The notes under the pieces: model-generated
What the model was told of the DNA's origin: nothing
Seen by the model: only the letters and a program-made list of their open reading frames with translations
Database searches by the model: none
In this document: positions 1,421 to 49,437 of the stretch, one piece after another
Position numbering within the stretch: position 1 is the stretch's first letter
How the letters are laid out: the number at the start of each line of letters is the position of its first letter
Assembly (NCBI GenBank): GCA_000091205.1
Contig: AP006495.2
DNA from: Cyanidioschyzon merolae
Lineage: Eukaryota
Reading direction: 5' to 3' (one strand)
DNA: 64,000 bases
Program-made: the position numbers and the translations under genes

Positions 1421-2833
1421 ATGCGAGTCTTGGAGCGATTATTTTGGCGGTCTGAGCGAGCGGGGCGACCGCAGGGTTCGTCCCTGGACCAAGTGCCCGG
1501 AAACGAGTCTCAAGCGTTAGGGGACCTGTCTGGGGAACTGGAACACCCCAGGTCAGGGTTTCGAGACGAGCTCGCGGTTCGAGATTCCACACATGCCCAC
1601 AGCGACAACAGTGGCGGCACCGGCACCGATCGTGCTATACCAGCGTTGTCGAAAAGACTCAGTGGTGGTGGTGCTTCCGGCGAAAGCACCACCATGGTGC
1701 GTGCTTTTCCTGAGCACCAACGTCTGAAAGCATTCCAGGAGCTCGAGTGCCTTGCCTTTGACGAGAAAGGCAACTTTGAGAGGCGAGCGGTCTCCCGACT
1801 GGAGCTCCTTCGAGCAGCGCGCTCTGTCCAGTCTGCCCTGATCGACTATCCGCCGTTGCTCAGCGATTCGGGCGATGACCTCAGCCAGGAACAAATAGCG
1901 AAACTGATGAAACGTCGCCAAAAGCGGATACATGAATATAGACAGAACTTTCTGCAGATTCGGGATCTGCGTCAGATTGATCCGAGTTTCGCCTCGAAGA
2001 CAGCGCTTTGGGTACGTCAGAACGTACTTATTATCAGCTTGTTGCATATTCGGGCACTAATTTTTGCAGATCGTCTTCTGCTTTTCGACCCGGACGCACC
2101 GGAAGTGCAAGAGACCTCGTTGGTGATTCGAGAACGGCTGCGCTCGGTGCCGGTCGATCGTGATGTCTACGCGCCGTTCGAGTTCCGTGCGCTGGAGGCT
2201 TGCTTCATATGCGTTTGTAACGCCCTGGAGCGAGAGCTCGGTGCGTTTGAGCCTTACTTGATGCAGCTTTTGGAAGATCTCTCTCGAGAGTCTACCATGC
2301 AGAAGATTGAATCACTGCGAATGCTCAAACTACGCTTGAACGGATTTCTAGCGAAAGCACAGGATATTCGTCAGACGCTCAAGTCGGTACTGGATGAAGA
2401 TGAAGATATGGCCCGACTCTATTTGACTGAGCTCCGAAAGCAGCATGGCAAACCGCGTACGACTGAGGATCACGAAGCTGCCGAGCAGCTACTCGAGTCG
2501 TATTTGCAGTTGGTGGACCACGTTCACAACCGAGCTGAGCTCCTCGACGCAGCCACAAGCGATACGGAGGATCTCCTGAGTATCCAGTTGGACGCGATGC
2601 GGAATCGACTGCTTGTTCTCGATATGTCGATTAGTGTGGTCACGGGCGCCTTCAGCTGGGCGGATGTCGTCATCGGGCTTTTTCACATGAATTTGCAGCT
2701 TCCAATCTATGGGGAGAACGGCGGTAGTGTCGGCTGGTTTATCGGTGTAGTTTTTGTGATGCTCGCCTGGGCACTCCTGCTTGTGGCCATCATGTTCACT
2801 TGGATTCGACGCTCGGGTCTTTGGCATGCGTAA
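1421..2833 (+). CDS. MRS2/CorA-family Mg2+ transporter (mitochondrial inner-membrane type)
   Basis: The C-terminal block SDTEDLLSIQLDAMRNRLLVLDMSISVVTGAFSWADVVIGLFHMNLQLP matches the Mrs2 region DDTEDYINIQLDNHRNQLIQLEL...FGMNF, and two C-terminal TM helices follow. The canonical GMN motif reads HMN here. Confidence 0.65.
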   Translation: MRVLERLFWRSERAGRPQGSSLDQVPGNESQALGDLSGELEHPRSGFRDELAVRDSTHAHSDNSGGTGTDRAIPALSKRLSGGGASGESTTMVRAFPEHQRLKAFQELECLAFDEKGNFERRAVSRLELLRAARSVQSALIDYPPLLSDSGDDLSQEQIAKLMKRRQKRIHEYRQNFLQIRDLRQIDPSFASKTALWVRQNVLIISLLHIRALIFADRLLLFDPDAPEVQETSLVIRERLRSVPVDRDVYAPFEFRALEACFICVCNALERELGAFEPYLMQLLEDLSRESTMQKIESLRMLKLRLNGFLAKAQDIRQTLKSVLDEDEDMARLYLTELRKQHGKPRTTEDHEAAEQLLESYLQLVDHVHNRAELLDAATSDTEDLLSIQLDAMRNRLLVLDMSISVVTGAFSWADVVIGLFHMNLQLPIYGENGGSVGWFIGVVFVMLAWALLLVAIMFTWIRRSGLWHA

Positions 2834-3753
2834 CGTTTGGAGTGTTCGAACAAAACTGCGGATCCTGCACAAGCCGGAACGCTGGCTAGTATGTTGCGTG
2901 AACGCCGCGAGAGAGATGGACGGTATCCGTGCGCTTTGGACCATACGCATGGACATGGGTCAGACTGCTTCGCCCGAGGAACCTTGAAACCGATGAGGCC
3001 TGACCAGCTGCGCATTTCAGCAGCAACTCGGCGAGTCTGTCGAGACACAACAGAGACCAGGTTCGGAGACCGCTTTCGATCTTGAATGGATCATCGTCTT
3101 GGCGATACGCTTTCCACCCAGATGGCGTTGACCAAAGCACTGATAAACCTTTGTCTTTCGAGAGCGAATCACGCGGAACTTTGTTCCTTCATAATATCCC
3201 CCGAATGAGCAAACGTGAATAGGCTTGCAGAGGCTGAGGAGCACTCGTTCATGCACAACATGGATCCGTCAACTGATAGACCGATCTGATCCTTTTGAGG
3301 AAAAACATGTTCAGCGCATGGAAGATATCCGGCGAACGTTTACGGCGGCTATTGCCTGCTTCTATATGATGGTAAGCAGTCAATAGCCGTGAATATATTC
3401 TTCTGACAATCATATGTTTTGTATTGTCTTCTTCATACTACACTGGGCATTGAAACTCACGCCGTGCTTTCCCCGGGCGCTGCTGGAGAGCACTTTCGGA
3501 ATCATGAAGCCGGCTTCGGCCAGCGCACCAGTCTGGGACATAGTGGATGAAGTGGCTTGCTCAGAAACACTCCGTCGTCGTCCTCCATTGCTGGTCACAG
3601 ACGTCGCCAATGAGGAGCAGGTTCTGCAGCGCCGAAACAACGCCCAAAGCGCCGCTCTATTCTAAACACCTCTGCCCTGAGCGAGGCGACAATTGCTTTC
3701 CATAGATGCGAATTATAGATAGAAGTACCGAGTAACGGAATGTTCTTATCCAT

Positions 3754-4503
3754 CGAATAGCCAGGAAAAACTGTACATGGTGAATTGGTGTGGTGCTCGG
3801 GTCTTGCAGTATTGCTGAACCGTTCTGTATCAGCGTGTGAGCAGAGGCGGGAATCCGATTCTCCCTCTTGAACAGTGATGTTTCTCCATTGCATATAGAT
3901 TCCGTTTCCAGCACCAGGGCCTCACTGGGTGCCAGAGGATTCCCTCAGAACTTCGCTCGACACCAAGCCGGTGGACGCGATGGCAACAAGCGCCCGTCCC
4001 GGATGTTCAGCGAGGCGATCATTCGTAGGTGCAGAGTGTCCTTGAGCGCATTCTTGCCGGGGGAATCATGCTACAGCATGCCTCCGATCTTCGATAGCTC
4101 CGCAATCTGAAATTTGATCAGCTTGCTGTTCGCCATCTCGTGAATCTGGCTCTGTCTCATGCTCTTCTTCTGTATTCGTTTCACTGTGCACCGGTACTGG
4201 CGATGCACGTACATCGTCCTGAACGCATCTATGGGAATCGTGCAGCATCGATTCGTGCACTTGCTTGGTGCTGTCGCTGAGGGCACAGGATTAGACTCTT
4301 GGGGTGGTACACAGCCCCCGTAGACATAGGCTACCACAACGCGACGAGAGTAATCGGTCATTTCCTTGCTGGGAGCCCCCAGAGGGCTTTGGTGAATGCA
4401 CGCATCTTGCCTCTGTAGAACCGGAGCCCGTCGGGGGCGTCAGTGCAGTCGCATGTGCTGCTCATACAGGTCCTTCGCATGAGCCATGTGGACGCCTTCG
4501 TAC
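3754..4503 (+). repeat. 750-bp dispersed repeat, copy 1 (direct repeat partner at 18034-18780)
   Basis: Direct comparison of the two regions shows about 10 mismatches over about 750 bp. The common ends are AATAGCCAGG...CCTTCGTACT. There is no TG..CA terminus and no obvious TSD or TIR. Confidence 0.8.
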
Positions 4504-6309
4504 TTTCTCTACGTGAAGCATACAAAGCTCCTGCCTCTGATCGAGACGGTGCTCAGAGGGCCATGATGGATCCTGGCACCCCCATTCGTGTCCTTGACAT
4601 GTCCCGTTGCCTGCATTATGCTCGACTGCCGATAATAAGGAGCTCTGAAAAAGTTGAGCAGCTTCATCTACTTTTCGTTCAGGTCCTCGGCTGCGTTCTC
4701 TTGATCTAGAGCCCAGTGACCTCCATGATATTCTTAAACATGGGATGCACGCACAGAAGAAAGGTTTTCTCTTTTTCTTTTCTGAACGCTTGAAACGGAG
4801 TCCCGTTGCCTGACGAAGGCCTGGATTCTACCACGTGCATATAGACTACAACGCCGTTGATCTCTCTCGTGTTCAGGAAGATTTTCCGTTCCATCCCGTT
4901 GAGCGAGCAACCCTGAATGAGCTCTGCCAATGCCGCATGCAAACTTGTCTGAATCTTTCATTTTTGCTCGCATAGACCAGCTCTCTCGTCGCCTTGTCCT
5001 TTACATGGCCGGATTGTATGCATCTGGTGACCAGATCCTCTATTTGTTTGTTTTCCTTGGAACCCAGGCACTTTGGGAGAACAGTGGTTATGAATCTGAC
5101 CTCATCTATGAGTGGATCTACTCATCCTCGAGCACCTTTTTGTCTACACCAACGCGAGCACGCCCGCAGACCGAGACGCACCTTTCCGCCTCCTGGACTG
5201 CGCGAGCTGACGGGCATCAGAGCAGCTCAGGCTTCGTGAATGCCGAACAGGATTCGTCGAAGACCGGTGTCGCGGACTCGAACAACTCTTCTATTGATCC
5301 GGGGATGTTAGAATGGCGTTCCACATCAGAGGAAGCGATGTCCTCTTGATTGAACCAAGGGGAGCGTGCTTGCACGAACTGCAGCTCAATTAGAATCTAA
5401 GCTGTGTACTCTTTGATCGCTTTTGAGCGGTCGAAAGTAACGTTGTGTTAGAGCAGGGCAGAGCGATATAGAGAGGCATAGGTATGAAACGTGCTCTGAG
5501 AAAGGATGAGGTATGGATCGGTTCCATCCGATTGGCGATTTGTAGGCGATACACGACTGCATTGTCGCTGGGGCTGAAGCTGTCGTCATGCTCGCTTGTC
5601 GCTTCTTAACGATAAGCGGGTTTTCCTTCCCGGAGTACCCAGGTACAGGTCTAGCATTCCTCTCGCGAAAGAAGTCTCATCGCGTGAGAGGAGCATTCGT
5701 CGCTCCTGTAATACGCATTGATGATCCAATACGAAATTGATCACGTGCTGCGCAGGGCACGACAAACTCCCACAGAAGCGCACTTTCATCTCCGTCCATC
5801 TGTTCGTCTTCATCACCAGTCGAATCAAATGTGCGGAAAACTTCACATACCATGGCTTCTCTAATTGTATTGCTTAGAGAATGTATGGAATACAATGGGT
5901 TGACGAGTAGACATTCGCGCGGATAGATTTCATCAATTTCTGTTTCGGGTGCATAACGTTCAGACCGAGGACTACGACAAATGCGGTTCATCCACTTGCT
6001 AACCGTCAACTAACTGACTTGTGCAAAGTAGGCCTATTTTTCCGGCTAGCAATGACAGCACAAGTCTTTCGATGACCTTGCCCCAATGCATCGTATGCAT
6101 TTCTTGTGCTGACTACCTCTGAGAAAACCGAACAGAAACAAAAACGGTGTGCTGTTGCAGGTATCCCTGAATGCACTGCGCTGTGGCTCAGGAGAGGCGG
6201 CGCATGAACGCCAACGCGTAGCAGCGATACGATCCCTTCGAAACCGGAGAGCGTCAAAACGCTTTCGTACTCATTTTTTTCGAGGCACTCTCGTCGGCTT
6301 TCTCCCAGC

Positions 6310-9300
6310 ATGACCGCCTGGAAGCAGCTTGCTGCAGTAGATGTTGGTACGGTACGTCAGAAAGTCACCGTGGAAAAGCATCGCTCCACAACAAGCGGCA
6401 TCACCGTGTACCTGGCTCAGGTGCCGGGGCCACTCGTATGCGGAACGCTCGTTTTCGCCACCGAAGCACACAGCGATGCCGGCGAACCGCACTGCTTGGA
6501 GCACCTTGTCTTTATGGGAAGTGAGTCATATCCTTACAAAGGCGTGTTAGATCTCGTTGCAAATCGCTCGCTCGCCCAGGGAACGAACGCCTGGACGGAG
6601 ACCGATCATACGGCGTTCACCGTGGAGACAGTTGGGGCTCGTGCCTTCCTCCACGTCCTACCTGTGTACCTGGATCACCTGTTTTTTCCTCTACTTCGAG
6701 AGTCCGCGTTTCGGACAGAGGTCTACCACGTGGTTGGCGAAACTTGTGCGGACGCCGGTGTGGTCTACTCCGAAATGGAAGCCCGTGAAAACACTGCAGA
6801 GTCGAAAGGCCTCTTGCGCTGCCTCCGCAGCCTCTACGGCGAGCCTGCTCGTTGCGGATACGCTGCTGAAACAGGAGGCATCCTGGACGAAATACGCCAG
6901 CTTACCAATGAGCGCGTCCGAGCCTACCATCAACAGTTCTATCGTCCGGATAATTTCGCTTTATTCGTATCTGGCGTGGTGGACCGCGATCTCCTCTTCG
7001 CTACGCTATCAAGATTCGAGCAAAGGCTCGTCAGCGTATTCACAGCGACGCATAGACGACCGTGGTCGGAAAGGGTGCCGCCAGCGCCCCGCTTTGGCCT
7101 CGTGCGGGAGCGGGTGCTCTTTCCTGCCGAACGAGCTGACTGTCCAGACGAGGCCACCGATGACACCGGTATCGTCTTTATCGGATGGAGAGGTCCGCCC
7201 ATCCATGACCTGGTCATGCGTACCGCGATCGAGGTCATGAACGACTACTTGAGCGAGTCGGGGAACGCACCGCTTCAGGAAGCATTGGTGGAGTGCAGCG
7301 ATGCCTTCTGTAACGATGTTTCCTTCATGCAGATGGATTTTCGGATCACTGCCAACATCCTTCAGGTGGAAAACGTTCCAATGCATCGATTGGATGATGT
7401 CTTTGATCGTGTTATGGGGATTCTGGAGGTCACCCACGAGCAGGGCATCGATGTGAACGGACGTTTGCGTACCATCATCGAGCGCCGGCGCCGGCAGTTC
7501 TTTGCCGCCCTGGAGGACGGAGCGAACGATGCGATCCTATCATTGCTTATCCCGGAGTTTTTATACAACGATCAGGATGATCAGGGGTATTTTCGACAGG
7601 CACTCGACATGCCAGGGGTGCTGGCGCACTTGGCTGCTCTCGATGAGTCATTTTGGCGAGAGCACATCCTGCGGCGTTGGTACCTACCTGGGGATGGGGA
7701 TCACGGGGCCTCGCTGGTCAGCTGCATTGTCTGCCAACCAAGCAAAGATGAGGCAAATCGTTTGCGCACAGAGGCTGCACTACGTATCCAAGAGCGTCTG
7801 GAACGCTTGAGTGCTGCCGAGCGCGTCGCCCTGGGTCAGCGGCTGCAAGAGTCCGTGGCGGAGCACCAGGTGTCTATCCCGGAGAGCTTAGTCCCGGTGT
7901 GCTCTGGGTTGCTTGACCCTGCGAGCATCTCTCGTTTTCGGGTGGAAACGATTCGTATCGATGATGTGGGCAGCGGCGTGCGACTGCAAATTGACGACGT
8001 CGATTCCGAGTTTGTGCGGTTAACAGCGCTGTTGGATACTCGGGGCCTGAGCGGGCGTCAGCGGCTTCTCTTGCCACTGTTTTTGGAGACGCTCTTTAAC
8101 ACTCGCGTCGGAGAGCGCGATCATCGTGCGGTACGGGATGCGCTGTTGGCGGATACCGTGGATTACGGGTGCGCAATAGGACTCTCGAAAGAAGGTGGCG
8201 ACGCTGGTGCTGGCTTCGCCATTGGTGCGTTCTCCCAGCTGATTTCCGTAACCATCAAATCGGAACGAGCGCTCTACGAAACCTGTGTGCACTGGCTCTA
8301 CGATATTCTGTATCGCTCTCAACTGGAAACCAATCGAGTGCGTATCGCTGCACAGAAACTATTGAACGACGTAGCGCAGCACCGTCGTGACGGCTCCGCA
8401 CTCGTGGCATGGCTCTCGAACGAGGTCCTCTACGGGGCGAACGACGAGGCCAATATTCCAGCGATGGCACCCTTTCGCCAGCGCCACTTGTTGCGACAGG
8501 TTTTGAAGCTGCTGGGTGAAAATCGCAACGATCGTGATGAGGATGAACACGACGACGACGATGAACACGACGGCGATATGAAGTACGACGACTGCGGCGA
8601 AGCGCACAGCTTTGACGCTCCCGAACGCGTCATTCCGTCTACGCTGCACCACCGGGCAGATGAAATGCCGTCGAGAGTCTGGACGGCGAACGCGCTCGCC
8701 ACGGATGCTTCTGCTTCTCCGGACTGGTCAAGGACGACGGGCACAAGCCAGCGATATTCGATGACAGCGCTGCTTGATGAGCTGGAGGCGCTGCGAAGAA
8801 GCCTCACAAGTCCCGGCAAGGTGTTCTTGCATGCCGTTTTACATTGCGATGAGCGTTTAGATGCCCTGTTAGAGCCGTGGAAGCAGACGTTTGGTGTTAT
8901 CAGCGGGATGCTCCCGAACGGCAACGGCCCGCTACCAGCTCATCCACAACTCGTTCAGTTTTCGCACGAGGTGCGCCCCAGTGCATCAGTGCCGCGCCGC
9001 TGCATCGTCGCCGGTGTCGACGGTGTCGATTCGTGTTACGCAAAACTCATCTCCGATGGACCGAAGAGCTTTCTGGACCCGGATTATCCGCTCTATTTGG
9101 TTTTGTTTGAACTGCTCGATGCACTCGAGGGACCGCTCTGGCGTGATATCCGGGGCGCTGGCCTCGCCTACGGATACAATCTCGGGTGTACGCCCGAGTC
9201 GGGGACGGTGTCTCTGAGCTTGTACCGCTCGACTGCTTTCGAGGGCGCCTTGTCTGCGGCGTTGGGCGTATTAGAGCGGTTTCATCAGCAACCTCAGGAG

Positions 9301-9657
9301 CTAATCGATGAAAACACCGTTGCATCGGCGTGCTCAGGCGTCTTGTGCACGCTGCTGAACCAGGAGAGCACAGTCGAGGCTGCGGCTTTCCAGCGACTAT
9401 GCAACAGTTGTCGCGGTTTCGAAGGTGACTATACCGGCGAGCTTCTGGCCAAGGTTATTAACGTGACGCCCGCGAAGCTTACCGAGTTTGCAACTCGGGT
9501 CTTGGCGGCTTTTCGCCTCGAGCATTGCCTTGTGACGGTTGTAACGAATCCCGCCAAGGCTCCTGCTGCCATGGAGGTGCTCCAGTCCAGAGGTGCGTTG
9601 CGCACTACCTGCGTCGATTCACTGGATGATTTTTTTGCATTGGAGAAAACAGTGTAA
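6310..9657 (+). CDS. Large M16-family (insulinase-like) zinc metallopeptidase-like protein, ~1115 aa
   Basis: The 1115-aa single ORF has an inverted zinc-binding motif HCLEH (HxxEH) near the N-terminus, followed by LVFMGSESYPYKG; size and layout resemble the long eukaryotic M16 homologues. It contains an acidic insert DEDEHDDDDEHDGD. Confidence 0.6.
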   Translation: MTAWKQLAAVDVGTVRQKVTVEKHRSTTSGITVYLAQVPGPLVCGTLVFATEAHSDAGEPHCLEHLVFMGSESYPYKGVLDLVANRSLAQGTNAWTETDHTAFTVETVGARAFLHVLPVYLDHLFFPLLRESAFRTEVYHVVGETCADAGVVYSEMEARENTAESKGLLRCLRSLYGEPARCGYAAETGGILDEIRQLTNERVRAYHQQFYRPDNFALFVSGVVDRDLLFATLSRFEQRLVSVFTATHRRPWSERVPPAPRFGLVRERVLFPAERADCPDEATDDTGIVFIGWRGPPIHDLVMRTAIEVMNDYLSESGNAPLQEALVECSDAFCNDVSFMQMDFRITANILQVENVPMHRLDDVFDRVMGILEVTHEQGIDVNGRLRTIIERRRRQFFAALEDGANDAILSLLIPEFLYNDQDDQGYFRQALDMPGVLAHLAALDESFWREHILRRWYLPGDGDHGASLVSCIVCQPSKDEANRLRTEAALRIQERLERLSAAERVALGQRLQESVAEHQVSIPESLVPVCSGLLDPASISRFRVETIRIDDVGSGVRLQIDDVDSEFVRLTALLDTRGLSGRQRLLLPLFLETLFNTRVGERDHRAVRDALLADTVDYGCAIGLSKEGGDAGAGFAIGAFSQLISVTIKSERALYETCVHWLYDILYRSQLETNRVRIAAQKLLNDVAQHRRDGSALVAWLSNEVLYGANDEANIPAMAPFRQRHLLRQVLKLLGENRNDRDEDEHDDDDEHDGDMKYDDCGEAHSFDAPERVIPSTLHHRADEMPSRVWTANALATDASASPDWSRTTGTSQRYSMTALLDELEALRRSLTSPGKVFLHAVLHCDERLDALLEPWKQTFGVISGMLPNGNGPLPAHPQLVQFSHEVRPSASVPRRCIVAGVDGVDSCYAKLISDGPKSFLDPDYPLYLVLFELLDALEGPLWRDIRGAGLAYGYNLGCTPESGTVSLSLYRSTAFEGALSAALGVLERFHQQPQELIDENTVASACSGVLCTLLNQESTVEAAAFQRLCNSCRGFEGDYTGELLAKVINVTPAKLTEFATRVLAAFRLEHCLVTVVTNPAKAPAAMEVLQSRGALRTTCVDSLDDFFALEKTV

Positions 9658-9963
9658 ACTTGCGGTCGAAGTGCTGATACGAAAGAAACGCGCTTCTCTT
9701 CAAGGCGCGGTGGTCTACAGCACGCGCCATGCGAATGGCACCTGCAAGACCCAAGTACACCTGCGATGCGACTTTGGTGCAATTAGCCGGAACGTTTGTC
9801 GCGAAAGCACTCCTGCTACTGCTCCTGGCTCTCTGCTTCCGCCAGCAATGTCCGTGTGTCGTGCGTCTTTCTCAAACGTTGCGGAGGCATCTAATGAACA
9901 GCCCTGTCTCGCGTGTATGGCCACCTTCACATCTGTGCGGAGCGCATTCCGTCGACAACGATT

Positions 9964-10821
9964 TCACGGCTGCAAACGCGTCATGCGCCATTGCATATCA
10001 TGGTCACTCGATTTCGAGTCCCTTTCGAAAAGCAGTCGATCGTGCAAACGGTTCGCGCGACCTTTCCAGAACTCCAAACGCAAAGCGTGAAGCCGATACC
10101 CGCCCCAATGTGGCGGTCGCGGTACTTCTCCATTCGCAAAGCGCTCCTCTACTTGGGCTGCTTGTCGCTCCAACGCTTCACGACTCGTAATTGGCCGAGA
10201 CTGCGCCGAGGCCCATGCACCCAGTCGCGAACCCAGAGGTCTCGATGCGAAATACGCATCCGAATCGGCAGTGGAGAGTCTCTCTACACTGCCTTCGACT
10301 CGGACGGAACGCTCTAGCTCCGGCCACCAGAATACGAGCGCTGCGCGAGGATTCCGGTCGAGTTCTTGCGCTTTCCTAGACTCGTAATTCGTATACCATG
10401 TGAACGTGGCTCTCTCGAGGTCGAGACCCTTGAGCAGAACCATTCGTGCAGCTGGAACCCCGTCAGGAGTCGCCGTTGCTAGCGTCATCGCGTTCGGCTC
10501 ATAACTCTTAACCCGAATCGCTTCATCAAACCACTTTTGGAACAGATGCATCGGCGAGCCTGCTGCACGAGCCTCCTCTTCGGTAAGCGGTGTATTCGAG
10601 TACTGTACTCGCAGTTTCGCGACCTCGTCGGTCATGGTAGCTCTCCAGCGCAAACTATGTGCCGTCCAACGAGCCAGGCGGGTACGCGTTTGTACTGTGT
10701 TGACGCACCTGCAAAACATCAAGCCTACGCCGCGCCTGAGTGCCTCCTGCAGCACTGGAGCGCCCTCTCTACAACGTGGCGTTTGACCACAGCGACGCCG
10801 CCCAGAGTCAGCGGAACGCAC
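9964..10821 (-). CDS. PNPO: Pyridoxamine 5'-phosphate oxidase (PNPO/PdxH)
   Basis: Strong family signature: LLKGLD...FTWYTNYESRKAQELDRNPRAALVFWWPELERSVRVEG...YFASRP...EVPRPPHWGGYRL...EFWKGRANRLHDRLLF. The true start is probably the internal Met at MTDEVAKL, since the track ORF begins at an alternative start upstream. Confidence 0.8.
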   Translation of the reverse strand: MRSADSGRRRCGQTPRCREGAPVLQEALRRGVGLMFCRCVNTVQTRTRLARWTAHSLRWRATMTDEVAKLRVQYSNTPLTEEEARAAGSPMHLFQKWFDEAIRVKSYEPNAMTLATATPDGVPAARMVLLKGLDLERATFTWYTNYESRKAQELDRNPRAALVFWWPELERSVRVEGSVERLSTADSDAYFASRPLGSRLGAWASAQSRPITSREALERQAAQVEERFANGEVPRPPHWGGYRLHALRLEFWKGRANRLHDRLLFERDSKSSDHDMQWRMTRLQP

Positions 10822-13800
10822 GTACGCCTCCTTCGTTGCTCGCTACGTGAAGAACCTGTGGCACCTCGAAGGGTACTGGAAACCGTCCTTCGACGAGTAC
10901 CTGGTTAGCAAGTTCTTGGCCTGCACATAAATCCCGTGTTTCCCACGGGTTGCTCTAGCGACTCGCAACGTGAAACTGTGACACTGATGCTGCAAATGCG
11001 TGTGCGGATCACGCACGCTGTCCCAAGTGCACGCATGCGCGTGCTGGACACGTGTGCATGATCGCCGCGTTGCACCTGCTTTTCTTCTCGATCTATCTAC
11101 CCATTTCGGTATAAAGTGCAAGGGCTCCACTTTGATGATGCAGAGGTGCACGTTTCAAGTTTAGGGATGTTCCTGTTGTGACTAACGCAGGCCTTTGTTG
11201 GCTTCTTCTTTGACAGTTTTCTTTTCAGTTTTTGCATCTCGGGCTTTGAATACACCGATCCCTCCTGTCTCCTTGTTACGGTTTCAGAAGTCGAAGGATG
11301 TTGATGGGAGCCTAAAAATGCTGTCCTCACAACTGCCGGCTATTGTTCAAGAATTCCGTGCACATGCAAACAATGCAACAGACGCTTCTCTTGCTTATAT
11401 CATCTTCTTCGTATGCGGCATCGGTGCGCACTTCGTAACGGTAACACTTGACTGTGGTCAGGTTCTCTCATGTATCCACCACATTCCGCCTTCGAGCTCA
11501 GCCCTGTGCCCCTTCAGCGCTTGATTCATCGCTCAGTATACGCCCTTAACTGATGCAGTAGGCTTGACTTGATGCCGTTCTCCGTTTCCGTATACGTCGC
11601 CGTACGCCGCGATCACGGGCTTCCTCTGAGCGATGCGACCGACGAGGACGCTGTGGGCTGAACACGCTAGCGCAAGTCGTCCCAGTCCATACAGGATTCG
11701 AGGAGTGCAATGTTTTCCGTGATGAAATGAGAATGGAAGGGAAAATCGAGGCTATTGCAAAGGTCGAGAAATCTCGATCCACGAACGCTCCGATCGTGGA
11801 AAGCGGTGGCGCACGCTCCGCTAGCGGCGATCGCTCTAATGACTGACGTCTGAACCCGAGACCCTTTTCTGCGCAAGCAGCAGAGACAGGAGCCTCTACC
11901 AGCATATCTTGTGAGAGGCATGGTGCTGCTGGTGTGGAATGCAGGGTCATCGATTGGGACAATGAGAGGAGAGTTTTTTTCTTTCGAGCAGGATCGATCA
12001 CTGGACGTGACAAGTTCAGGGAGCGTTCGGCACTAGCCTATGCGCAAGTCGTCAAGCGACGACGGAGAGTACTTTTCATCGTCTAGCCAGCCGGCGAATT
12101 CCTGCGTCCACTATTTTCCTTTAAACGGAATGTAGAAACCTTGAGGAACGCATGATTTGCGCATGATACTTGTGAGGAAAGGAACGGACTGGAGGCTAGT
12201 GCGAACGAATTGTATCATAATTTTATTTATTATACGAACTCTTGCTTGAGTGCATCGCGAATGATCCTGAATCCGGTGATATAAAGAGTTCTTTCAGCAT
12301 AGCGTTGAGAAAGCCACATCGAATACCTGGCTGCGAATCCTAAAACCATGTATGCATGAACGATGCTCGTTGCTACACTTCGACAGCTGAGGCCAGGCAT
12401 CTAAGAAAGGATCGGAAGAAATTCCAAGGCAGGAACACGGCAAGCAGTACGACGTCCCGTGTTAATCGGACAGGCGTATAGGCTCGATGCATTTCAGCGG
12501 ATATTCACCAGCGATAGGACTACTGCAGATAACCAGCGAAGAAACGCCACTGTTCCACAAGATTCATGTATGGTGTAGGATCAACGCTCCTTATGAAATG
12601 TCCTCCCGCGGTGCAACTGCTGATGATCACCAGAGAAGAACGCTCTCCGTAACTCCACGGAAACTTCCAAGCATCAGCAAGAGCCGTTCAGTGTTTGCGG
12701 CAGGTTCAAGACTTTGCTCGAGCAACTTGTCGGGTGCCGAGCCCAGCCTGCTGTCCGTACAGACATAGGACGGGATTGTGGTCCCTCTGCTATGATCGCC
12801 TTAACAACTGCCTCTCATCGTTCCGAATAAAAGGCACCTAGATCCGCAGATAGAAACTTGTATTTACGCTTGTTTCGCCCAATCTAGACGTTGCAACCGA
12901 CTGCACCAAGCTCTTCGTCTTGAAATCCCTCGAGCCGTCCATTTCATTATCGCATGATTCATTAGTGCGCAACTCGTCGCTTAGAGCATGCCGTGTGTAC
13001 CAGACGATCCATTCGCCGAAAATCGAGCGCCAAACCAAGCATTTACCGCTGACAACGACTCGCTCCATACACGCCGACGAGCCGTGCTGCACAGCTGTTG
13101 GTAGTGACCCGTCCAGCAAGATAACCACTCGGACGAAGGTTATCAGGACGACGATCTATATGGTCATTCGTCCCCGACCTGAAAAACACCGAGACATGTG
13201 CACCACCATGCGCTATCGAAGCACCGAAATAAAACAAGTTTCCTCTCCAGTGAGGACGCCTACCGCGAGCTCATAATCTCGACCACCGCCATCAGAACTT
13301 GCATGACCACGCCCTTCATCCTGAGGCATACCGCCCAGGGAATCCTTATGGTCTCGCTGACGCGAACACGCCAGCGTCGGTGCCACAGGACTGCACGCGA
13401 AACGGAACGAAGCGGACACGTGGTTGCTAGTCCCACGGCGCCAACGTACCCTTCAAATCACTTGGCTATCACTTCCTGCCGGATGTGTCCATGTCCTCCG
13501 TCTCTACCGCAACAGGTGCGCCAGTGTTGTGCTTGTCATGCATATTCATATCCAAGTACGCGCGCATGTCCTCGATCGAGTCGCGACCTGGAGCACCAGC
13601 GGAGCCAACGGTCGAAGAGCGCGGCGTCCGCGTTGGCGTCGGCGCACACTCTTCCCGTTTCGGACACCCCTCCCTGAGCCAGTCAAAAAAGGCTCCAGGT
13701 CCGACTTCATAGTGCCCATCACGCATCTTAAACCGTGTCACGAGACACATACTGAACACAGATACAAGCGCCAACGCCAAACTTGAACGTGTTGGTTGCT

Positions 13801-13883
13801 CGCTGATCGCAGGCGCCGCCACGTCAGTTGTGGCTGCGGCGGCGGCGCCGCCCCGACGGGCTACCCCCTCCAACGGCGATCTC

Positions 13884-14076
13884 ATCGATAGGACGTACGA
13901 AACGACCAGAATATCCGAGATGAAGTATAGGTAATGTAACTTGGGAGTAGGGTGTTTGATGGATACCTCACCGCGCACTGAAAACACACACACAAAAAAA
14001 GTAAGAAAAGAAAAATGCGCATAATCGGAGAACGCTGGCCTATGGAAACGGTTTGTCTATGGAAAAAAGAAAGAAA
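13884..14076 (+). mobile_element. SINE-like short retroposon, copy A (5'-truncated), flanked by 12-bp target-site duplication AACGGCGATCTC
   Basis: The element ends in the A-rich tail GGAAAAAAGAAAGAAA. Perfect 12-bp direct repeats lie at 13872-13883 and 14077-14088. The body is about 85-90 % identical to copies at 20961-21165 and 40781-41005 in reverse orientation. Confidence 0.6.
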
Positions 14077-15695
14077 AACGGCGATCTCAGTGCGCAGCGC
14101 CCGGATGCCGTTGCACGGCGTTGCGGCCCCGAGCGCAGACAAGTAGGTGTTGGTGCGAGAGTCTGGGGCAGACTCGACATTCAGCGTACATGTATGTGGA
14201 TTCTTGGATTGGACAGAGATCGCTGACGGAGATACTGAGATGATCTTGTTCGGTATGTAAATCTCGTGGCATTTGTTGGTGAAGTGTAGGCAATTTTCAG
14301 TTTACCAGGAACTGTGCTTCGGGAGTCATCAGGGTCGATCGCATAACTCGATATCCGTAGACTGTGTTCGAAGTATTGTGGAGGCTGTCTGATTTTGACG
14401 GGAGCAGCATGGACCGCAAGTCTGCGCTCTATGCGTAAAATTCTATTGGCAGGAGCTCGGGAAGGAGCAAGAAACATCGCTTGACGCTCTCGAGTCGCGC
14501 ATACAAATCCGGAATCAGTGGAGCCTCGCCCCGTCACTAATGCTTGGCGGTCTCTTGCTTGGTTACCGACCGTCGTCGCACAAGCAATGAAATCGAGTCA
14601 GCGTCTCCAGTTCTATCGTAGAGAAGATGCAGCATAGCTGCGCTCTTTGCTAAGGGGGCAATCCATCGTAGACCGGGGCGCTCAACATCTGCAGGTGCTT
14701 GATCGATCACTCCCGGTGGAGGAGAATGTCGAGACTTTCGAAATATCGAGCGGGCACGGCACAGGCAATGTCTCGTGCTCTCCTGGGACCCGCTTGAATT
14801 TGTTTCCGTGCTTCAGCTTGATGTAATGAGCGACACGAGAGTCGAGGTTCATCTAGATTTGATTCGTGTCCATCGTGCTGGAAAGGCCCCGAGCATCTGC
14901 GTCAAGCCGAAGAAACCCGCCTTCATTCACCTTTACGGATCTTGTCCTTTGGTATGTCCTATCGTTCTTCCGGGTCAGAGATGATCGAATTCATTAGTGC
15001 TCGGCATGAGACTCGAGCCGATGGTGTTCTCCATGTCGTAACGGTTCCTCGCGGTACAGGCGATCTCGCAAGCGTAGAAAAGATCGTATCAAGGAACGAG
15101 CGCGCGCTTATGGCCTCTTCGCTCATCCATGCTTTCGCCTTTTTGTACCAAAGTCCTTTCGGTGTCTATACGAAATGAAACAAACGATAAAGTGAACTGG
15201 GTCAAGAGTCGCGAGAGAGATTCCTTAGAACGTGGACCTTCCCGAGGGCGCTGGCTTCCCCTCGCGTTCAGTCGCCCTTGAAGACTCCATAAGCGAGACG
15301 ACGGACTTTATCTATTCGCGATGACGAACTTGGCGGAGAGAGGTCAGTTTAAATTTGGTGACGATGAATTGCGCTTGGGCCATTTCTTCGGGCTCGTCGT
15401 CTCCTCTCTCTCTCACCCGAAGCATCGTGCAGCACATTTCCTCTGAATTCCAGAGCATGTGCTACCCTTATACCGATGGAATCATTTTTCTCTCCTGGTG
15501 AAGCGCACCCTCAACCGCTAATTCGCTCAAGAGATCCGAAAATTCGATACACCTTTTCGTTGCTACAGGGCGAATGCACCAGTTTGAAACATGCACGACT
15601 GGGTTCCTGCATGCCCAAGTGCCATCTCGCCACCACGCTCAGGCGCTAAGGTCGCGCTGGCGTGTGTATAGCGCCCCTCGTATCGGTAAGCAAGT

Positions 15696-16139
15696 ATGTA
15701 CGTGGCGCTTATCGCACAGTGGCAGCGACGAATACTCGTGGACACAGCACTTCGGAGAATGTCGTCTTGTACACTGGGGACACCTCGAAGAGACGTATCT
15801 CGTGAAGCCCGTTGTGTGCCGTGCGAGGGCATCGGGTCGGCGCTCAGCGCTGAGCAAGTGGCGGAGTTGGTCGCCACCAAGACACCCCAGTGGACGACAA
15901 CTCCTGACACAAAACGTCTGCATCGCACTTGGGTTCGTCCAAACTTTAAAGATGCTATGGAATTTTTGAACCGTATAGCGGATGTTGCGGAAAAGGAAGG
16001 ACACCACCCGGACCTGCACCTCACGAACTGGAACCGTGTTCGCGTGGAGCTCTGGACGCACGCTCTGGGCGGTCTCACCGAGAACGACTTTATATTGGCT
16101 ATGAAAGTCGATGAGATAGCAGAGCAAGGTCAAAAGTAG
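15696..16139 (+). CDS. PCBD: Pterin-4-alpha-carbinolamine dehydratase (PCD/DCoH) with N-terminal extension
   Basis: The C-terminal ~100 aa carry the PCD signature EGHHPDLHLTNWNRVRVELWTHALGGLTENDFILA. The N-terminal ~50 aa may be a targeting peptide or upstream of the real start. Confidence 0.7.
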   Translation: MYVALIAQWQRRILVDTALRRMSSCTLGTPRRDVSREARCVPCEGIGSALSAEQVAELVATKTPQWTTTPDTKRLHRTWVRPNFKDAMEFLNRIADVAEKEGHHPDLHLTNWNRVRVELWTHALGGLTENDFILAMKVDEIAEQGQK

Positions 16140-16603
16140 GCCATGATTTGGAGCAAGAGCTATTGCGAGGGTGCGGAAGCGACCGGAGTTGTTTACGTTG
16201 CGGCGCTCGATGAGGGCGATGAAACTGGAGTTTCCGCTCGCGTTGACGTAGTAAGGTCGAGGAGCGCGCACCAGTTGGCTTCGGGCGCGCTTTCATGGCG
16301 GGGTTTCCCAGCGCTCGCAGGCGATCGTCCGGTGCCTGGTAACGTACCGCTTTTGCAGACGTCGTTGGCCCGGCGAGCTGCAGGCTTCAATGGACCGCGA
16401 TGGTCATCGCAACCAGGCCGCAAGATACACACTAATGGGAACCACAGTTTACGAATTGACCTCAAGGGGGATTCCTGCGTCACCTGATCAAGCTAGAGAG
16501 ATCTTTCCTACGATCAAATGGGCCCCAGAGGAGCTCCTTTCCTTCATAGCTTGCGCTTGTAGCGTCTTTTTGCAGCCATACTAAACGAACCTTTGAGGGA
16601 AAC

Positions 16604-17734
16604 TTATGCCGGAATTCCACCAGGCGGATCCCATTTTGAACCAAGCTCGCTTAGTTTCTTGTGGGCATTTGCATAGTCCTCGAAGAACTTGGCCTCATCG
16701 GTGGCATAGATCTTCACGTACTTGTTGAATTCCGGATCTTCGACGAGAGCCTTGTCTGTGACGAGCTTCAGAAGCTCCGGATCAGCATTCGGATCCATGA
16801 GCACCTTGAAGTACATGTTGTTGAACTGGAGCCAGTCCGGTGTCCAGGAGCTGCCTCCCTTGGTCACACCGCTCACTGCGCGCGTATACTTGGTGCCCTC
16901 CTCACCGGCGCCGAAGCCACTTCGGAACTTGTACGCGCGTCCAATGGTATGGCCACCGCTCAGTGCAACGATCTCCTGGTCATTGAAACCCATCCGATAG
17001 AAAACCCTACGCAAATGCGCGGCAGCGTCCTCCTTGTCGGGCGCGGGCTCGTTAGGATTCTCACCCTCGGCCTTGTGGAACGGTGGACCGCCCGCCGGGA
17101 GTCGACCCTCTGGTGGCACCTCATTCTCCGACTGGGCATCGACACGGCCGAAACGGAACGGAATCTTGGGCCCGCCTGCAACCTCGATCGACAGAACACT
17201 TGCGTACTGAATAAGATCAGCCCATCCTACGTTTGGGTACTTCTCTTTGATTGGTTTCAACAGGTTCAGAGCGCCCGGGAGACCAACATTGCCGCCATGC
17301 TGGAGTTCCTTATTGAAACGAATAGAGCCGTTCGCACCGCCCGTTCCCAGGCGTGCGTCGTAGTCTCCCGAGTCGTGCCACGCCAAGCGTACCAGGATCG
17401 GCATCGCTTTGGTACGCTTGATCATTTCAACAAGATCGTTCCGAACAGAAGTCATCGTCTGTGTGTCGATTGCCATGGTCACAAGCCTTCGCGTCGGTGC
17501 CTGGGTGTTGAGTCTCAAAACTGCCGCGCCGCGGTACGCTTCACGTTGCACAAAATAAGAACTGAATCGAACTTTGTTCGCAGAACGCACTGAAACACTG
17601 CTGATTCTTCTAACCTGAATAGAGCGCAACGAAGGAAAACTTACAGCGTTTGAAAAAGCAATCTGTCCTGAATTCATCGAGCTACGGATACCACTGTACC
17701 CGTTACGTAAAAGTGAGCACGACAGGATACGCAT
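16604..17734 (-). CDS. Class I haem peroxidase (ascorbate peroxidase / cytochrome c peroxidase type) with long N-terminal presequence
   Basis: Distal motif RLAWHDSGDYD, proximal-His region GGHTIGRAYKFRSGFGAGEEGTKYT, and a W...DP C-terminal domain are present. About 100 aa of N-terminal Ser/Arg-rich extension suggests organellar targeting. Confidence 0.8.
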   Translation of the reverse strand: MRILSCSLLRNGYSGIRSSMNSGQIAFSNAVSFPSLRSIQVRRISSVSVRSANKVRFSSYFVQREAYRGAAVLRLNTQAPTRRLVTMAIDTQTMTSVRNDLVEMIKRTKAMPILVRLAWHDSGDYDARLGTGGANGSIRFNKELQHGGNVGLPGALNLLKPIKEKYPNVGWADLIQYASVLSIEVAGGPKIPFRFGRVDAQSENEVPPEGRLPAGGPPFHKAEGENPNEPAPDKEDAAAHLRRVFYRMGFNDQEIVALSGGHTIGRAYKFRSGFGAGEEGTKYTRAVSGVTKGGSSWTPDWLQFNNMYFKVLMDPNADPELLKLVTDKALVEDPEFNKYVKIYATDEAKFFEDYANAHKKLSELGSKWDPPGGIPA

Positions 17735-18033
17735 GAAGTGTAGCTCGCGATGTCGCGATGCCGCCCTGCCGAAGCGTTCGGAAGGCGGCGGGATCGCTGT
17801 GCTCGCGCATCTGCAGCCATTGGTGCAACGCGTACGCCGCGATGCACGCGCCAGGTACAGGTGTGCGCTGGCGATCGGCGCGCATCCGCTGGCGTGATCA
17901 GATTCGTCTCGAGGCTGATCGCCGCGCTGTGCCGCATCGCCGCTGGGGTATGTTGTGAAGCGCGCGCGCTCTGTACCCCGCTTATGAATGCGCGATCATA
18001 TCGCATGCTGGATCATCTTTCTTGTCGACCAAT

Positions 18034-18780
18034 AGCCAGGAAAAACTGTACATGGTGAATTGATGTGGTGCTCGGGTCTTGCAGTATTGCTGAACCGTTC
18101 TGTATCAGCGAGTGAGCAGAGGCGGGAATCCGATTCTCCCTCTTGAACAGTGATGTTTCTCCATTGCATATAGGTTCCGTTTCCAGCACCAGGGCCTCAC
18201 TGGGTGCCAGAGGATTCCCTCAGAACTTCGCTCGACACCAAGCCGGTGGACGCGATGGCAACAAGCGTCCGTCCCGGATGTTCAGCGAGGCGATCATTCG
18301 TAGGTGCAGAGTGTCCTTGCGCGCATTCTTGCCGGGGGAATCATGCTACAGCATGCCTCCGATCTTCGATAGCTCCGCAATCTGAAATTTGATCAGCTTG
18401 CTGTTCGCCATCTCGTGAATCTGGCTCTGTCTCATGCTCTTCTTCTGTATTCGTTTCACTGTGCACCGGTCCTGGCGATGCACGTACATCGTCCTGAACG
18501 CATCTATGGGAATCGTGCAGCATCGATTCCTGCACTTGCTTGGTGCTGTCGCTGAGGGCACAGGATTAGACTCTTGGGGTGGTACACAGCCGCCGTAGAC
18601 ATAGGCTACCACAACGCGACGAGAGTAATCGGTCATTTCCTTGCTGGGAGCCCCCAGAGGGCTTTGGTGAAAGCACGCATCTTGCCTCTGTAGAACCGGA
18701 GCCCGTCAGGGGCGTCAGTGCAGTCGCATGTGCTGCTCATACAGGTCCTTCGCATGAGCCATGTGGACGCCTTCGTACTA
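18034..18780 (+). repeat. 750-bp dispersed repeat, copy 2 (partner of 3754-4503)
   Basis: See copy 1; same orientation, 14.3 kb apart. Confidence 0.8.
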
Positions 18781-20960
18781 CATGGAGCTTACATCATGTC
18801 CCGCCAGTTCCATTCTTCTGTGTCAGAATTGCTAGGGCACGACGGGTACGATCCAAAGAGGGTGCGTCCCAGGAAGCGCTCGGCATTGACCCGCGGGAGG
18901 TATTTGAGGTTGTTTTCAATTTATCATTGACGCTCGCGGCTTACATTTGGTGATCGCTGACGTTGCTCGGCGTTGTGCCAAACTATACAGGGAAGCCTGT
19001 ATAAAGATTTCGGATCAAAAGATCAGTCCGTCAGACGTCTTCTATCCCGATCATCTGTTGTCCTGCGTTGCGAAGGTGAGATCGAAAGATATCCAGAGAA
19101 ATATGGATAGATGGCAGCGCTGCGTCCGGATTTCATGCGATCAGTTGCTTGACGATGTGGGCCAAAGCGAGAGAAGCAGGCGAGCGTTCCTCAAATGAGA
19201 AGCCACGCGATCTTTCCTAGCGTCCATCAGCTCGCGTAAGAAAGGTGAACCCGCAGATGCGTTTTCGTAGGGAGGCCATGCCAACGGTTTCAGGTTGATC
19301 TCTCAGCCCCGATAGGTTTTCTTTCTGGTTCCTCGTCGTCCTGCGTTCTGTACAAAGTTGCTGCTTTTGCCCCATGAGTCCTGCACCTTCTACTTCTCCG
19401 CGTTCGCCCATACTTGGTGGAGAATCATGAACGTATACCCATACTCCATAACCGTTCGTTTTTCTTGGGATTCTGATGCGCCGTAAGGGCGGAATCATTG
19501 AAGCGCCACTGCTCTATTGATGTATTTACGGTCCCGTAACTACTTTTTCGTGATCCCCGTTCCGACCGTGTCCATAAACCGCAGCGCGCTTGTCCTCTGC
19601 CTCGCGCATACGACGAGCAACACTGCAGATCCGGGCTGGTCAGGGCAGGGAACAACTCGACCAAGAAGGATGCCATGGATGTGTTCGAGTCGTCCGTTGA
19701 TCCGTAAGCGTCGAAACGGTCTCTGACAACAGAGAAGACGCCTGCGACTCGATTCAACCCAGGAGCATACACTGGCACCGAGAGCACTTCAACTCGAACC
19801 GCAACTGCATGCACCGTTCCCGCTTGTGTGAGTGATAGAAAGCGGCGTTATGTAAGAGCAGGCGAGAGGCGTATGGAAGGAAAAGTCCTGAAGTGCTTCG
19901 ACGAAGCGTGAGGTGATGAACGATCTTACCCGATTGGCGATTTGGCGGCAACTATACGATAGCTACGACGCTATGACTGTTTTTTTAGTTACGGTCGCTC
20001 GTTTCACCTCTGCAAACAGCGGTTTGTTCCTTGTTGAGAACACGTGCACAAGTCTGCGATTTCCCTGGGACGAGGTCCCTTCGAGTGAGACGGAGAACCG
20101 TCTCAGATATAGGAAGCATTCGCGTTTCTGTACGAAATCGATGGCGTGCTTTTCAGCACGGGACCGTCCCGTACGGAAGCACGCTCTTTCATCATGTCCA
20201 TGTGTTTCTCTCGATAAGCATTGGTATCAGCGGTGTGGAAACTCCACACGCTTTGGCTTCTTTGGAAGAAGTTCGTTGAGAATGTTTGGAGTGAATTGGG
20301 TTGACGAGGAGACAGGCGCGAAAATAGAGTTTCATAGGTTCTGTGTTTTGGGTACACGACGCGTAGGATAGAGGACTACCAGGAAGGTGGTTCCTCCACC
20401 TGCTCATCGTTCAATGAAAGACTCGCACATGTAAGACCTTTTTTCGCAATCTAGCAGTCGCAGCATCAATTAGCTCCAAGACCTTCCTCCGATCTACACG
20501 ATGCATTGTTTTTGTGAAACATGCTCGGGTGATACAGAAACATACACAAAATGGACGTCATTGTATATGCGTCCCCGAAGGCACTGCTCGATTCGGAGCA
20601 TACCAGAAGCGTGTCGTTCTACCAGAATCGACTCGGCCATATGGAGGTTTCCTCTGAACACTCCATATATTACAGCATTGGCCTTGGATCAATACAGTCG
20701 ATGCTGCGGCTAGCGCGCATACACGCTGCAACCTTCGCTCGCGAACAGCGTTGCGACCGATCCACCGTCGGTATCATCGCATGCACGCAAACCGATTGGC
20801 TTTGAATGGAATACACTACGAGAGACTGAACTGACTCGCCTGGATGTGCAAACGCTTCTGGTTAGCGGCGCTCCGACTTGCCCAGGAATGTGTGGTCTTA
20901 TCGAAACTTTGTCGCCTGAGAGCACTGCAGGACCCGGAGAAAGCGCTTCAATCGATTCAA

Positions 20961-21165
20961 TTTTTTATTCATTGACAGAACGTTTCCTTAGGCCAGCGTT
21001 CTCCGATTATGCGCATTTTTCTTCTCTTACTTTTTTTGTGTTTTTTCAGTGCGAGGTGTGGTATCCATCAGCTCCCTACCTCCATGTTACATTACCTATA
21101 CTTCTTCTCGGATATTCTGGTCGTTTCATACGTCCTATCGAGTGTGTGCCTAGTGCCTGCCGAAA
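20961..21165 (-). mobile_element. SINE-like short retroposon, copy B (full-length relative to copy A; sense on minus strand, poly-A at the 20961 end)
   Basis: Reverse-complement alignment with copy A and direct alignment with copy C at 40781-41005. The T-run at 20961-20966 corresponds to the A-tail on the sense strand. Confidence 0.5.
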
Positions 21166-21364: not shown

Positions 21365-21465
21365 GGGGTGCTGGTCTATCGTTACAGGGGATCTGGTGGT
21401 ATGATTTGCCGTTAGGGAATTCTCCAACATCGGCAAGGTCCCGGGTTCAATTCCCGGGCACCCCC
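21365..21465 (+). tRNA. tRNA-like pol III unit, about 101 nt, isotype undetermined
   Basis: Canonical T-arm CCGGG-TTCAATT-CCCGG, a 7-bp acceptor pairing GGGGTGC/GCACCCC, a discriminator, then an immediate T5 run at 21467-21471 (pol III terminator). The 3' half folds as an anticodon stem TGCCG/CGGCA with loop TTAGGG..(A), a 12-nt insert, and variable loop AGGTC. This is consistent with an intron-containing tRNA with anticodon AGG (Pro), but the 5' half has about 15 extra nt and I cannot fold a standard D-arm. Confidence 0.45.
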
Positions 21466-24090: not shown

Positions 24091-24327
24091 AACAGCGTCT
24101 TTCGGCTGCCGATTATTTGATCCGCGCCTCTGTTCCTGCCTGGTGCAAGCAGGTCGACGTAACCGACTGGATGCACAGATGCGGAACCCAGCGAGCGACG
24201 CGGGTGTCTTGCAGCGCCCGGCCGTTGCTCAGACAAGATGATCGGCAGCGGGGCGTACTCGAGCGCCAGTGTACAGCTATTGCAAGCGCAGGTTCTGCGG
24301 GAAAGTATGGGTCATGGCGGGCGGTAC

Positions 24328-24520
24328 CTGGACGCAGAGCGCTGACTGAAGGTCATTTTCTGTGTTGCCGATATCCTCCCGCGCACTCGGGATGCTCCTG
24401 TCAGTGTCGAGGTTCACTGGTGGAACCTGGATGTCGAACGCTGAATGAAGGGCGTTCTCCCAGTTGCCGATATCCTATCGCGCGCACTCGGGACTCTCTT
24501 GTCAGTGTTAATGTTCTGTC
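24328..24520. repeat. Tandem duplication, about 95 bp x 2 (about 80 % identity)
   Basis: ACCTGGACGCAGAGCGCTGACTGAAGG...GTTGCCGATATCCTCCCGCGCACTCGGGATGCTCCTGTCAGTGTCGAGG is followed by a diverged second unit ACCTGGATGTCGAACGCTGAATGAAGG...GTTGCCGATATCCTATCGCGCGCACTCGGGACTCTCTTGTCAGTGTTAATG. It lies 3' of the TFIIH p52 gene. Confidence 0.6.
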
Positions 24521-40742: not shown

Positions 40743-40780
40743 CTACGCACTCGCCCCGCGGCGAATGCCGTCCAATCGAT

Positions 40781-49168: not shown

Positions 49169-49437
49169 TATCACCAATGGCGGCCGATGCACTTTGCAGC
49201 AGAGGCCGCTGGACGGGAATGGCGACGCGCCCGGCCCCGCGAATCGTCGTAATTCGAACACGTGTTAGAGGCCTGGCAGCACCGATGCAACGCAACACAC
49301 TACGAGCTTTGCATGAACCGCAACTGGAACGTTGGGTGAGCTAGGTGCCCGCGACTCGACGCGACGCTGCCAGACGGTAGCTGGGTCGCACCGGCTGATG
49401 CAGGAGGCAGCGCAGCGTTGTACCTTTAAGCACCGCT

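Follow-up and report, generated by a model that had tools for sequence, protein, structure and literature searches.

Two short non-coding direct repeats, lying 14 kb apart in the genome of the free-living red alga Cyanidioschyzon merolae, appear to have evolved in concert. The repeats were examined in a stretch of 64,000 nucleotides, called the window below, which was placed on chromosome 13 (866,983 bp) of C. merolae 10D by exact protein matches (among them stromal ascorbate peroxidase BAM81015, CMM164C, CMM170C, and CMM171C). Judging from the comparisons presented below, recurrent non-allelic (interlocus) gene conversion between ancient paralogues has probably kept the two copies, A and B, of the repeat unit (denoted Y1) 98-100% identical over 746 bp. 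No paper on this repeat pair was found in the literature.

Self-BLASTN of the window produced one outstanding match, 3743-4504 versus 18019-18779 (98.2% over 762 columns), which was cut back to its sharp high-identity core by base-by-base alignment. The resulting 746-bp copies are copy A (3757-4502), located in the 3.5-kb spacer between an MRS2-like gene and an M16 peptidase gene, and copy B (18032-18777), located in the 4.2-kb spacer between the ascorbate peroxidase (APX) and Tfb2 genes. The copies are in direct orientation, 14,275 bp apart from start to start, with 13,529 bp between them. In 10D they differ by 10 substitutions (4 transitions and 6 transversions), evenly spread along the unit, and by no indels, i.e., they are 98.66% identical. 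This agrees with an earlier note, made from the letters of this DNA, which described two direct repeats of about 750 bp with about 98.6% identity, some 10 differences and no indels. A chance origin of a 746-bp match at 98.7% is impossible. Weaker A/B similarity runs past both borders: on the left, 3743-3756 and its partner 18019-18031 share about 10 of 14 positions with one gap, marginally above chance, and on the right, 4503-4524 and its partner 18778-18793 contain a 6-bp indel followed by 13 matches in 16 positions. These two strips would be the decaying edges of a converted tract.

The near-identity of Y1 is embedded in much older homology. A second homologous block, Y2, is found downstream of both copies, at 4962-6182 (locus A) and at 19365-20590 (locus B), and its order and orientation with respect to Y1 do not differ between the loci. 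The two Y2 blocks are 59.5% identical over 1209 columns (nhmmer E = 1.9e-88), and the Y1-Y2 gaps (459 bp at locus A and 587 bp at locus B) are non-homologous. A third copy of Y1, copy C, lies at 62327-63040 on the minus strand, covers approximately positions 7-734 of the unit, and is 57% identical to it (nhmmer E = 7.6e-34). A weak partial fourth copy, D, lies at 41683-41951 on the plus strand and covers approximately unit positions 457-728 (E = 5.7e-06, or 6.2e-08 with the A+B+C profile), so that the window holds three to four copies of Y1. No third Y2 copy was found in the window with the profile built from both Y2 blocks, and a Y2 block beside copy C, suggested by weak hits (E about 0.007-0.01), was rejected on this ground. 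Extensions of homology implied by nhmmer envelopes, between B and C to the left of the unit and between A and D to its right, would have turned the borders into limits of homology; they were likewise rejected, since the flanks alone match nothing (E <= 10). The 59.5% identity of the downstream Y2 blocks and the 57% identity of copy C argue that A and B are old paralogues of a dispersed non-coding repeat, in which only the 746-bp near-identity is recent. The suggestion of a recent dispersed duplication made in the earlier note thus stands in one part, the identity being recent, and fails in the other, in that the duplication itself appears old, with Y2 at 59.5%, copy C at 57%, and both copies present in every strain sampled.

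The wild-strain data are metagenome assemblies throughout, with contigs given L numbers. Contigs matching the window with 99.1-99.5% identity were retrieved from many hot-spring metagenomes by a look-up with the PNPO protein. L008-L013, which come from at least six separate assemblies, are collinear with the window through copy B, the whole intervening block and copy A, with 99.1-99.3% identity. Both copies are present in all sampled strains, and an empty site was seen in none. Three contigs of approximately 14 kb (L015-L017) end inside the repeats because the repeat is longer than the k-mer used in short-read assembly. The 121-bp terminal overlap of L015, a candidate for a circular molecule, was dismissed, as the ends lie inside the repeat and the contig is an ordinary repeat-bounded one. 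The possibility that the pair is an artefact of the reference assembly can be given next to no weight: nothing was found in its support, although the repeat does break or confuse short-read assemblies, and it is contradicted both by the six or more collinear metagenome assemblies and by the description of the 10D reference as a finished, 100% complete genome (PMC1955436). A single pair created by a collapsed or misassembled duplication had been named in the earlier note as grounds for abandoning its observation; the near-identical pair is indeed single, yet independent assemblies reproduce both copies.

Copies A and B were extracted from the wild-strain contigs and compared with those of 10D. 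The A/B differences inside one strain number 10 in 10D, 1 in L008, 0 in L009, and 13-14 in L010-L012. Orthologous comparisons (A versus A and B versus B) give 8-18 differences between 10D, L008, L009 and the L010-L012 group, and 0-6 inside that group. Paralogues are, in other words, no more distant than orthologues across strains. Shared polymorphisms outnumber fixed differences between the A set and the B set by 10 to 1, a count from which L008 and L009 were left out because their copies may have been collapsed by the assembler. In L010-L012, all 14 A/B differences fall at unit positions 499-726, within the last 248 bp (P = 2e-7 under uniform spread), which corresponds to approximately 6% divergence in that tract, against none over the 498 bp before it. 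In these strains, the diverged right end of copy A would represent a decaying tract edge. One candidate signal was discarded: allele C at unit position 291, which seemed to be restricted to 10D and common to both 10D copies, is also carried by the wild contig L015.

It should be noted that short-read assemblers can collapse or mix near-identical copies, and only end haplotypes anchored in the flanks are safe from this effect. Therefore, the key test was restricted to variant sites that can be linked to a unique flank by a single read or k-mer. At the left end, the haplotypes GTT, ACA and GTA (positions 32/46/80, at most 80 bp from the left flank) each occur at both loci, in different strains. 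The same holds at the right end for the haplotypes ATTA and GCCA (positions 708/718/719/726, at most 39 bp from the right flank). These haplotypes cannot have arisen by assembly mixing, because a single read ties them to the flank. The occurrence of the same end haplotypes at both loci argues that sequence has moved between the loci more than once.

These observations bear directly on a simpler scenario, in which a single copying event (a small dispersed duplication or a templated-repair patch) took place shortly before the strains diverged, no exchange followed, and the shared variants come from assembly mixing. The even spread of the 10 differences in the finished 10D genome is what such an event would leave, the A/B divergence of 1.34% is close to the neutral between-strain divergence (roughly 0.7-1.3%), and a collapsed repeat edge could account for how little the copies differ in L008 and L009. 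Nevertheless, we consider this scenario unlikely: with haplotypes anchored within 39-80 bp of unique flanks at both loci, a swap by the assembler is impossible; the right end of locus A in some strains, approximately 6% divergent from B, is far older than the strain split; and there are 10 shared polymorphisms against 1 fixed difference.

The exchange is best described as gene conversion by homologous recombination, and we infer that homogenization has been continuous since the ancient duplication, as opposed to one recent patch. In the proposed sequence of events, a break would arise in one copy and be repaired by homologous recombination, with the other copy, 14.3 kb away in direct orientation, serving as the template. 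Sequence would be copied without crossover, leaving the chromosome unrearranged. The neighboring Y2 would have escaped exchange and drifted to 59.5% identity; the drop in identity at the borders of the tract is abrupt. Classical non-homologous end joining (NHEJ) is reportedly absent from C. merolae (PMC6635534). DNA integration and gene targeting in this alga proceed by homologous recombination, and when an introduced wild-type gene repaired a mutant allele on the chromosome, the repair was ascribed to gene conversion (PMC3764038). These reports make gene conversion plausible in this host.

Several points weigh against recurrent conversion and should be set beside the evidence for it. The genome-wide copy number was inferred from public contigs, so that further near-identical copies are excluded only indirectly. 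Assembly artefacts may partly explain the 0-1 differences between the copies in L008 and L009, as well as the absence of differences from the first 498 bp of the unit in L010-L012. Conversion must have gone on for a long time if a non-functional 746-bp unit was homogenized continuously next to 1.2 kb that diverged by 40%. Finally, the 10D sequence, taken alone, would be explained equally well by one recent patch of templated repair with a short phase of exchange after it.

If recurrent conversion shaped the pair, it may also have left a trace in the rate of variation. The between-strain divergence of Y1 is 1.1-2.1%. Other non-coding DNA diverges by approximately 0.2-1.3% (in most cases 0.7-1.3%) and coding DNA by 0-0.6%. 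The higher divergence of Y1 fits the import of paralogous variants and argues against purifying selection. This is relevant to the proposal that the unit is functional, encoding a small protein or a non-coding RNA or acting as a regulatory module, and that its copies are held alike by purifying selection. Copy B begins 297 bp upstream of the APX start codon, and a different C. merolae interspersed repeat was reported to be transcribed (Nozaki et al. 2007, PMC1955436), both of which would be compatible with a function. The unit shows, on the other hand, no features of a protein-coding gene. The list of open reading frames (ORFs) contains, in copy A, an 80-aa ORF at 3868-4110 on the plus strand, overlapped on the minus strand by ORFs of 64 aa (4066-4260) and 96 aa (4071-4361), just as the earlier note reported. 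Three substitutions between A and B fall within the 96-aa ORF, two non-synonymous and one synonymous, in line with its statement that the substitutions lack a synonymous bias. The 122-aa reading frame that holds the 96-aa ORF has no homologue beyond its own orthologue among 5.8 billion proteins, and a protein search with the longest called ORF of Y2 found only orthologues. Mismatches between Y1 and copy C are distributed over the codon phases as 106/104/93 (p = 0.61), with no periodicity, and codon periodicity is likewise missing from the alignment of the two Y2 blocks. Thus, the repeat has no credible ORF, as had been proposed: neither protein homologues nor codon periodicity were found.

The search for RNA genes gave similar results. 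Rfam, applied to both spacers with gathering and E-value thresholds, returned no match except one far below threshold, at 21408-21461, outside the repeat (21.3 bits versus a gathering score of 65.7, E = 0.57), and the tRNA scan found none. Folding of the unit compared to shuffled sequence gave z = -0.16 and +0.42 for the two strands, i.e., no extra stability. Taken with these folding and Rfam results, the absence of a homologue for the 122-aa frame, the two non-synonymous changes among three in the 96-aa ORF, the lack of codon periodicity relative to copy C, an identity to copy C of only 57%, and a polymorphism between strains that is higher, not lower, than that of neighboring non-coding DNA make a conserved function highly improbable.

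A further explanation is the double insertion of a young, non-autonomous mobile element, the 746-bp unit. The unit has sharp borders and its immediate flanks occur only once in the window, the diverged copy C spans almost the same unit (7-734), which suggests a discrete module, and the neighboring spacers are filled by other dispersed repeat families. The hallmarks of transposition are nonetheless missing. Neither terminal inverted repeats (TIRs), target-site duplications (TSDs), a poly-A tail nor tandem structure was found at the unit, the flanks are not duplicated, and the unit starts with AATAGCC or ATAGCC and ends with CTTCGTA instead of showing the TG...CA ends typical of long terminal repeats (LTRs). 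The earlier note was therefore right in finding no LTR-like ends and no clear TIR or TSD. Neither a transposase nor any other protein homologue was found. A scan with a unit 26-mer, together with an exact look-up of a 60-aa ORF, showed that public contigs with the unit carry only A flanks, B flanks or A/B hybrids, and the 26-mer had no match among viral contigs. Moreover, both copies are fixed in all sampled strains, A and B lie at similar distances upstream of the old homologous block Y2, and the short weaker similarity runs past both borders. We regard two insertions of a young element as quite improbable, and the idea of a non-autonomous transposon put forward in the earlier note is not supported: there are no TIRs, TSDs or LTR ends, the public contigs with the unit show only the A, B and hybrid contexts, and no strain sampled has an empty site.

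The pair could in principle also recombine with crossover, and three contigs have the structure expected of such products. The 14,417-bp contig L014 (ENA ERZ27249350 k141_233982, assembled by MEGAHIT at k141) forms a closed cycle of 14,276 bp, with a 141-bp terminal overlap in unique DNA near 15.3 kb. It contains the block and one repeat, joined as B-left/repeat/A-right. The reciprocal junction, A-left/repeat/B-right, is present in L005 (JGI 3300001340, JGI20133J14441_1019557; 1,949 bp) and in L025 (JGI 3300050376, Ga0506611_003863; 3,199 bp). The three contigs come from different samples, from strain backgrounds in which copy A hardly differs from copy B along most of the unit. All three are probable assembly-graph artefacts, because a normal chromosome and a deletion plus circle share the same k-mer graph where the copies are identical beyond k. 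It is thus doubtful that reciprocal A/B recombination in natural populations yields a 14.3-kb circle with four housekeeping genes and one repeat, along with a chromosome carrying the A-left/repeat/B-right junction. If it does, the circle must persist, as an episome or through tandem amplification, or re-integrate, because the M16, PNPO, PCD and APX genes are probably needed; essential genes would then be carried, in a free-living alga, by a circle excised through repeats. The earlier note also considered the pair as a substrate for ectopic recombination. Exchange without rearrangement is supported by the haplotype sharing, and deletion or circle excision is suggested by these three contigs.

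The block enclosed by the repeats (4503-18031, 13.5 kb) comprises the Y2 block of locus A, the M16 and PNPO genes, a 4.9-kb spacer that carries other old repeats, and the PCD and APX genes. Pfam hits confirm the four genes that had been placed between the repeats (M16 peptidase, PNPO, PCD, and peroxidase). Direct Pfam scans identified Peptidase_M16 at 6310-9657 on the plus strand, PNPOx (PNPO) on the minus strand at 9964-10821, or at 9964-10635 from a shorter start, and peroxidase (stromal ascorbate peroxidase, APX) at 16604-17734 on the minus strand. Pterin_4a (PCD), at 15759-16139 on the plus strand, was identified in related contigs, where the called gene carries precomputed Pfam hits. The PNPO protein look-up used the ATG at 10635, and exact-protein look-ups with the ORF calls for M16, MRS2 and the longer PNPO start returned no record. 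Outside the block, the left neighbor of copy A is the MRS2-like Mg transporter gene (1421-2833, plus strand), and the right neighbor of the spacer with copy B is the Tfb2 gene (21958-24090, plus strand). The 297 bp between the APX start codon and copy B (17735-18031) have a G+C content of 63.6%, compared to 49-55% in the surrounding spacer, and are probably the APX promoter or 5' untranslated region.

Besides Y1 and Y2, the window contains further old dispersed repeats, which make mosaics of its other long spacers. Family X is represented by four full copies, each in a long intergenic spacer (10973-12478, 24865-26373 and 56512-57925 on the plus strand and 37784-39170 on the minus strand), and by a partial copy at 61895-62402. 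The copies are approximately 1.4 kb long and approximately 58% identical (nhmmer E about 1e-95 to 1e-102), show no codon periodicity, and contain ORF remnants of 186-238 aa without a Pfam hit. Repeat Z occurs at 13885-14075 (minus strand), 20956-21141 (plus) and 40780-40990 (plus), with a weaker copy at 44142-44482 (minus). Its core of approximately 200 bp is 83-93% identical among three copies, which is far better conservation than in the other families. The first two, 6.9 kb apart and in inverted orientation, bracket PCD, APX and copy B. Repeat Z has no Rfam match; it could be a young element similar to a miniature inverted-repeat transposable element (MITE), an undescribed small RNA or a promoter module. 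Family W is found at 41336-41618 (plus), 53839-54384 (plus) and 61317-61854 (minus), and its best pair is 68% identical over 540 bp (E = 4e-63).

The published interspersed repetitive element of C. merolae has 253 copies, spread over all chromosomes, with a mean length of 3.2 kb and makes up approximately 5% of the genome (PMC1955436; PMC5405695). It contains a truncated ORF with weak similarity to wsv486 of white spot syndrome virus (BLASTX E = 1e-5 to 4e-2; Nozaki et al. 2007, PMC1955436). Family X may be this 'WSV repeat'. The elements at loci A and B resemble it in being intergenic and dispersed, in the similar size of Y1, spacer and Y2 taken together (approximately 2.4-2.6 kb), and in the presence of several diverged copies of the unit within one window. 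A wsv486-like ORF was not found with the two longest called ORFs of Y1 and Y2, in a search among 5.8 billion sequences where such weak similarity would be invisible. The supplements of Mikulski et al. 2017 (PMC5405695) contain no repeat annotation for this locus. Very old repeat families make up the window's long spacers, and the published repeat figure of approximately 6% may not cover them.

Several other duplications were observed in the window. The proteins CMM170C and CMM171C (46982-50715) are 99% identical (373/375 and 422/425) to CMM056C and CMM057C, also on chromosome 13, and represent a second young or homogenized duplication on this chromosome, at least 3.7 kb long. A small tandem duplication at 48876-49168 (147 bp x 2, 97%) lies in the divergent spacer that separates their two genes, and two others lie at 42214-42365 (approximately 76 bp x 2, 87%) and at 24320-24516, just past the Tfb2 gene (99 bp x 2, 77%). 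The region 42000-44000 shows strong strand asymmetry (GC skew -0.20, AT skew -0.21) and contains overlapping ORFs of approximately 300 aa on opposite strands, 42197-43093 (plus) and 42607-43512 (minus), without a Pfam hit; it may be a low-complexity gene or repeat-derived sequence.

C. merolae is a minimal eukaryotic genome model, nearly repeat-free and with efficient gene targeting by homologous recombination. If recurrent conversion between A and B is correct, short non-coding repeats 14 kb apart would exchange often enough for concerted evolution even in this genome, and the pair would offer a natural, well-bounded locus for estimating rates of ectopic conversion and deletion in C. merolae. 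Caution is warranted in genetic engineering and in assembly around the APX, PNPO and M16 genes, where short-read assemblies break or mis-join.

Compared to known systems, the pair resembles the two ends of an LTR retrotransposon in having direct repeats of LTR-like length around several kb; unlike such an element, it lacks TG...CA ends and TSDs, and its interior consists of four conserved host genes and not of gag/pol. No LTR elements were detected in the genome of C. merolae by Nozaki et al. (PMC1955436). As in MITEs or other non-autonomous DNA transposons, the unit is short, non-coding and dispersed, with diverged relatives, whereas TIRs and TSDs are absent and, among public contigs, only two near-identical copies and no insertion polymorphism were seen. 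Extrachromosomal circular DNA formed from direct repeats is known in yeast and other eukaryotes. The closed loop of L014 and the reciprocal junction of L005 and L025 are the structures expected from this process; the difference is that here they are assembly contigs alone, and that a normal chromosome gives the same k-mer graph.

The closest similarity is to low-copy repeats in concerted evolution by non-allelic gene conversion, of which human low-copy repeats and dispersed yeast repeats are examples. Like these, A and B lie on the same chromosome in direct orientation, are as close to each other as, or closer than, their orthologues, have polymorphisms common to both paralogues, show a tract-like mosaic and a sharp drop of identity at the borders, and are potential substrates for deletion, duplication and circle formation. 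They differ from known low-copy repeats in the short length of the unit (746 bp), its non-coding nature, its apparent lack of function and its position inside older homology of 57-60%; in addition, the host is in the haploid phase and is reported to lack classical NHEJ (PMC6635534), and the exchange was inferred from population assemblies. In its behavior, the pair matches low-copy repeats in concerted evolution. This phenomenon is well known and involves no new mechanism, and the locus is a clean, bounded example of it.

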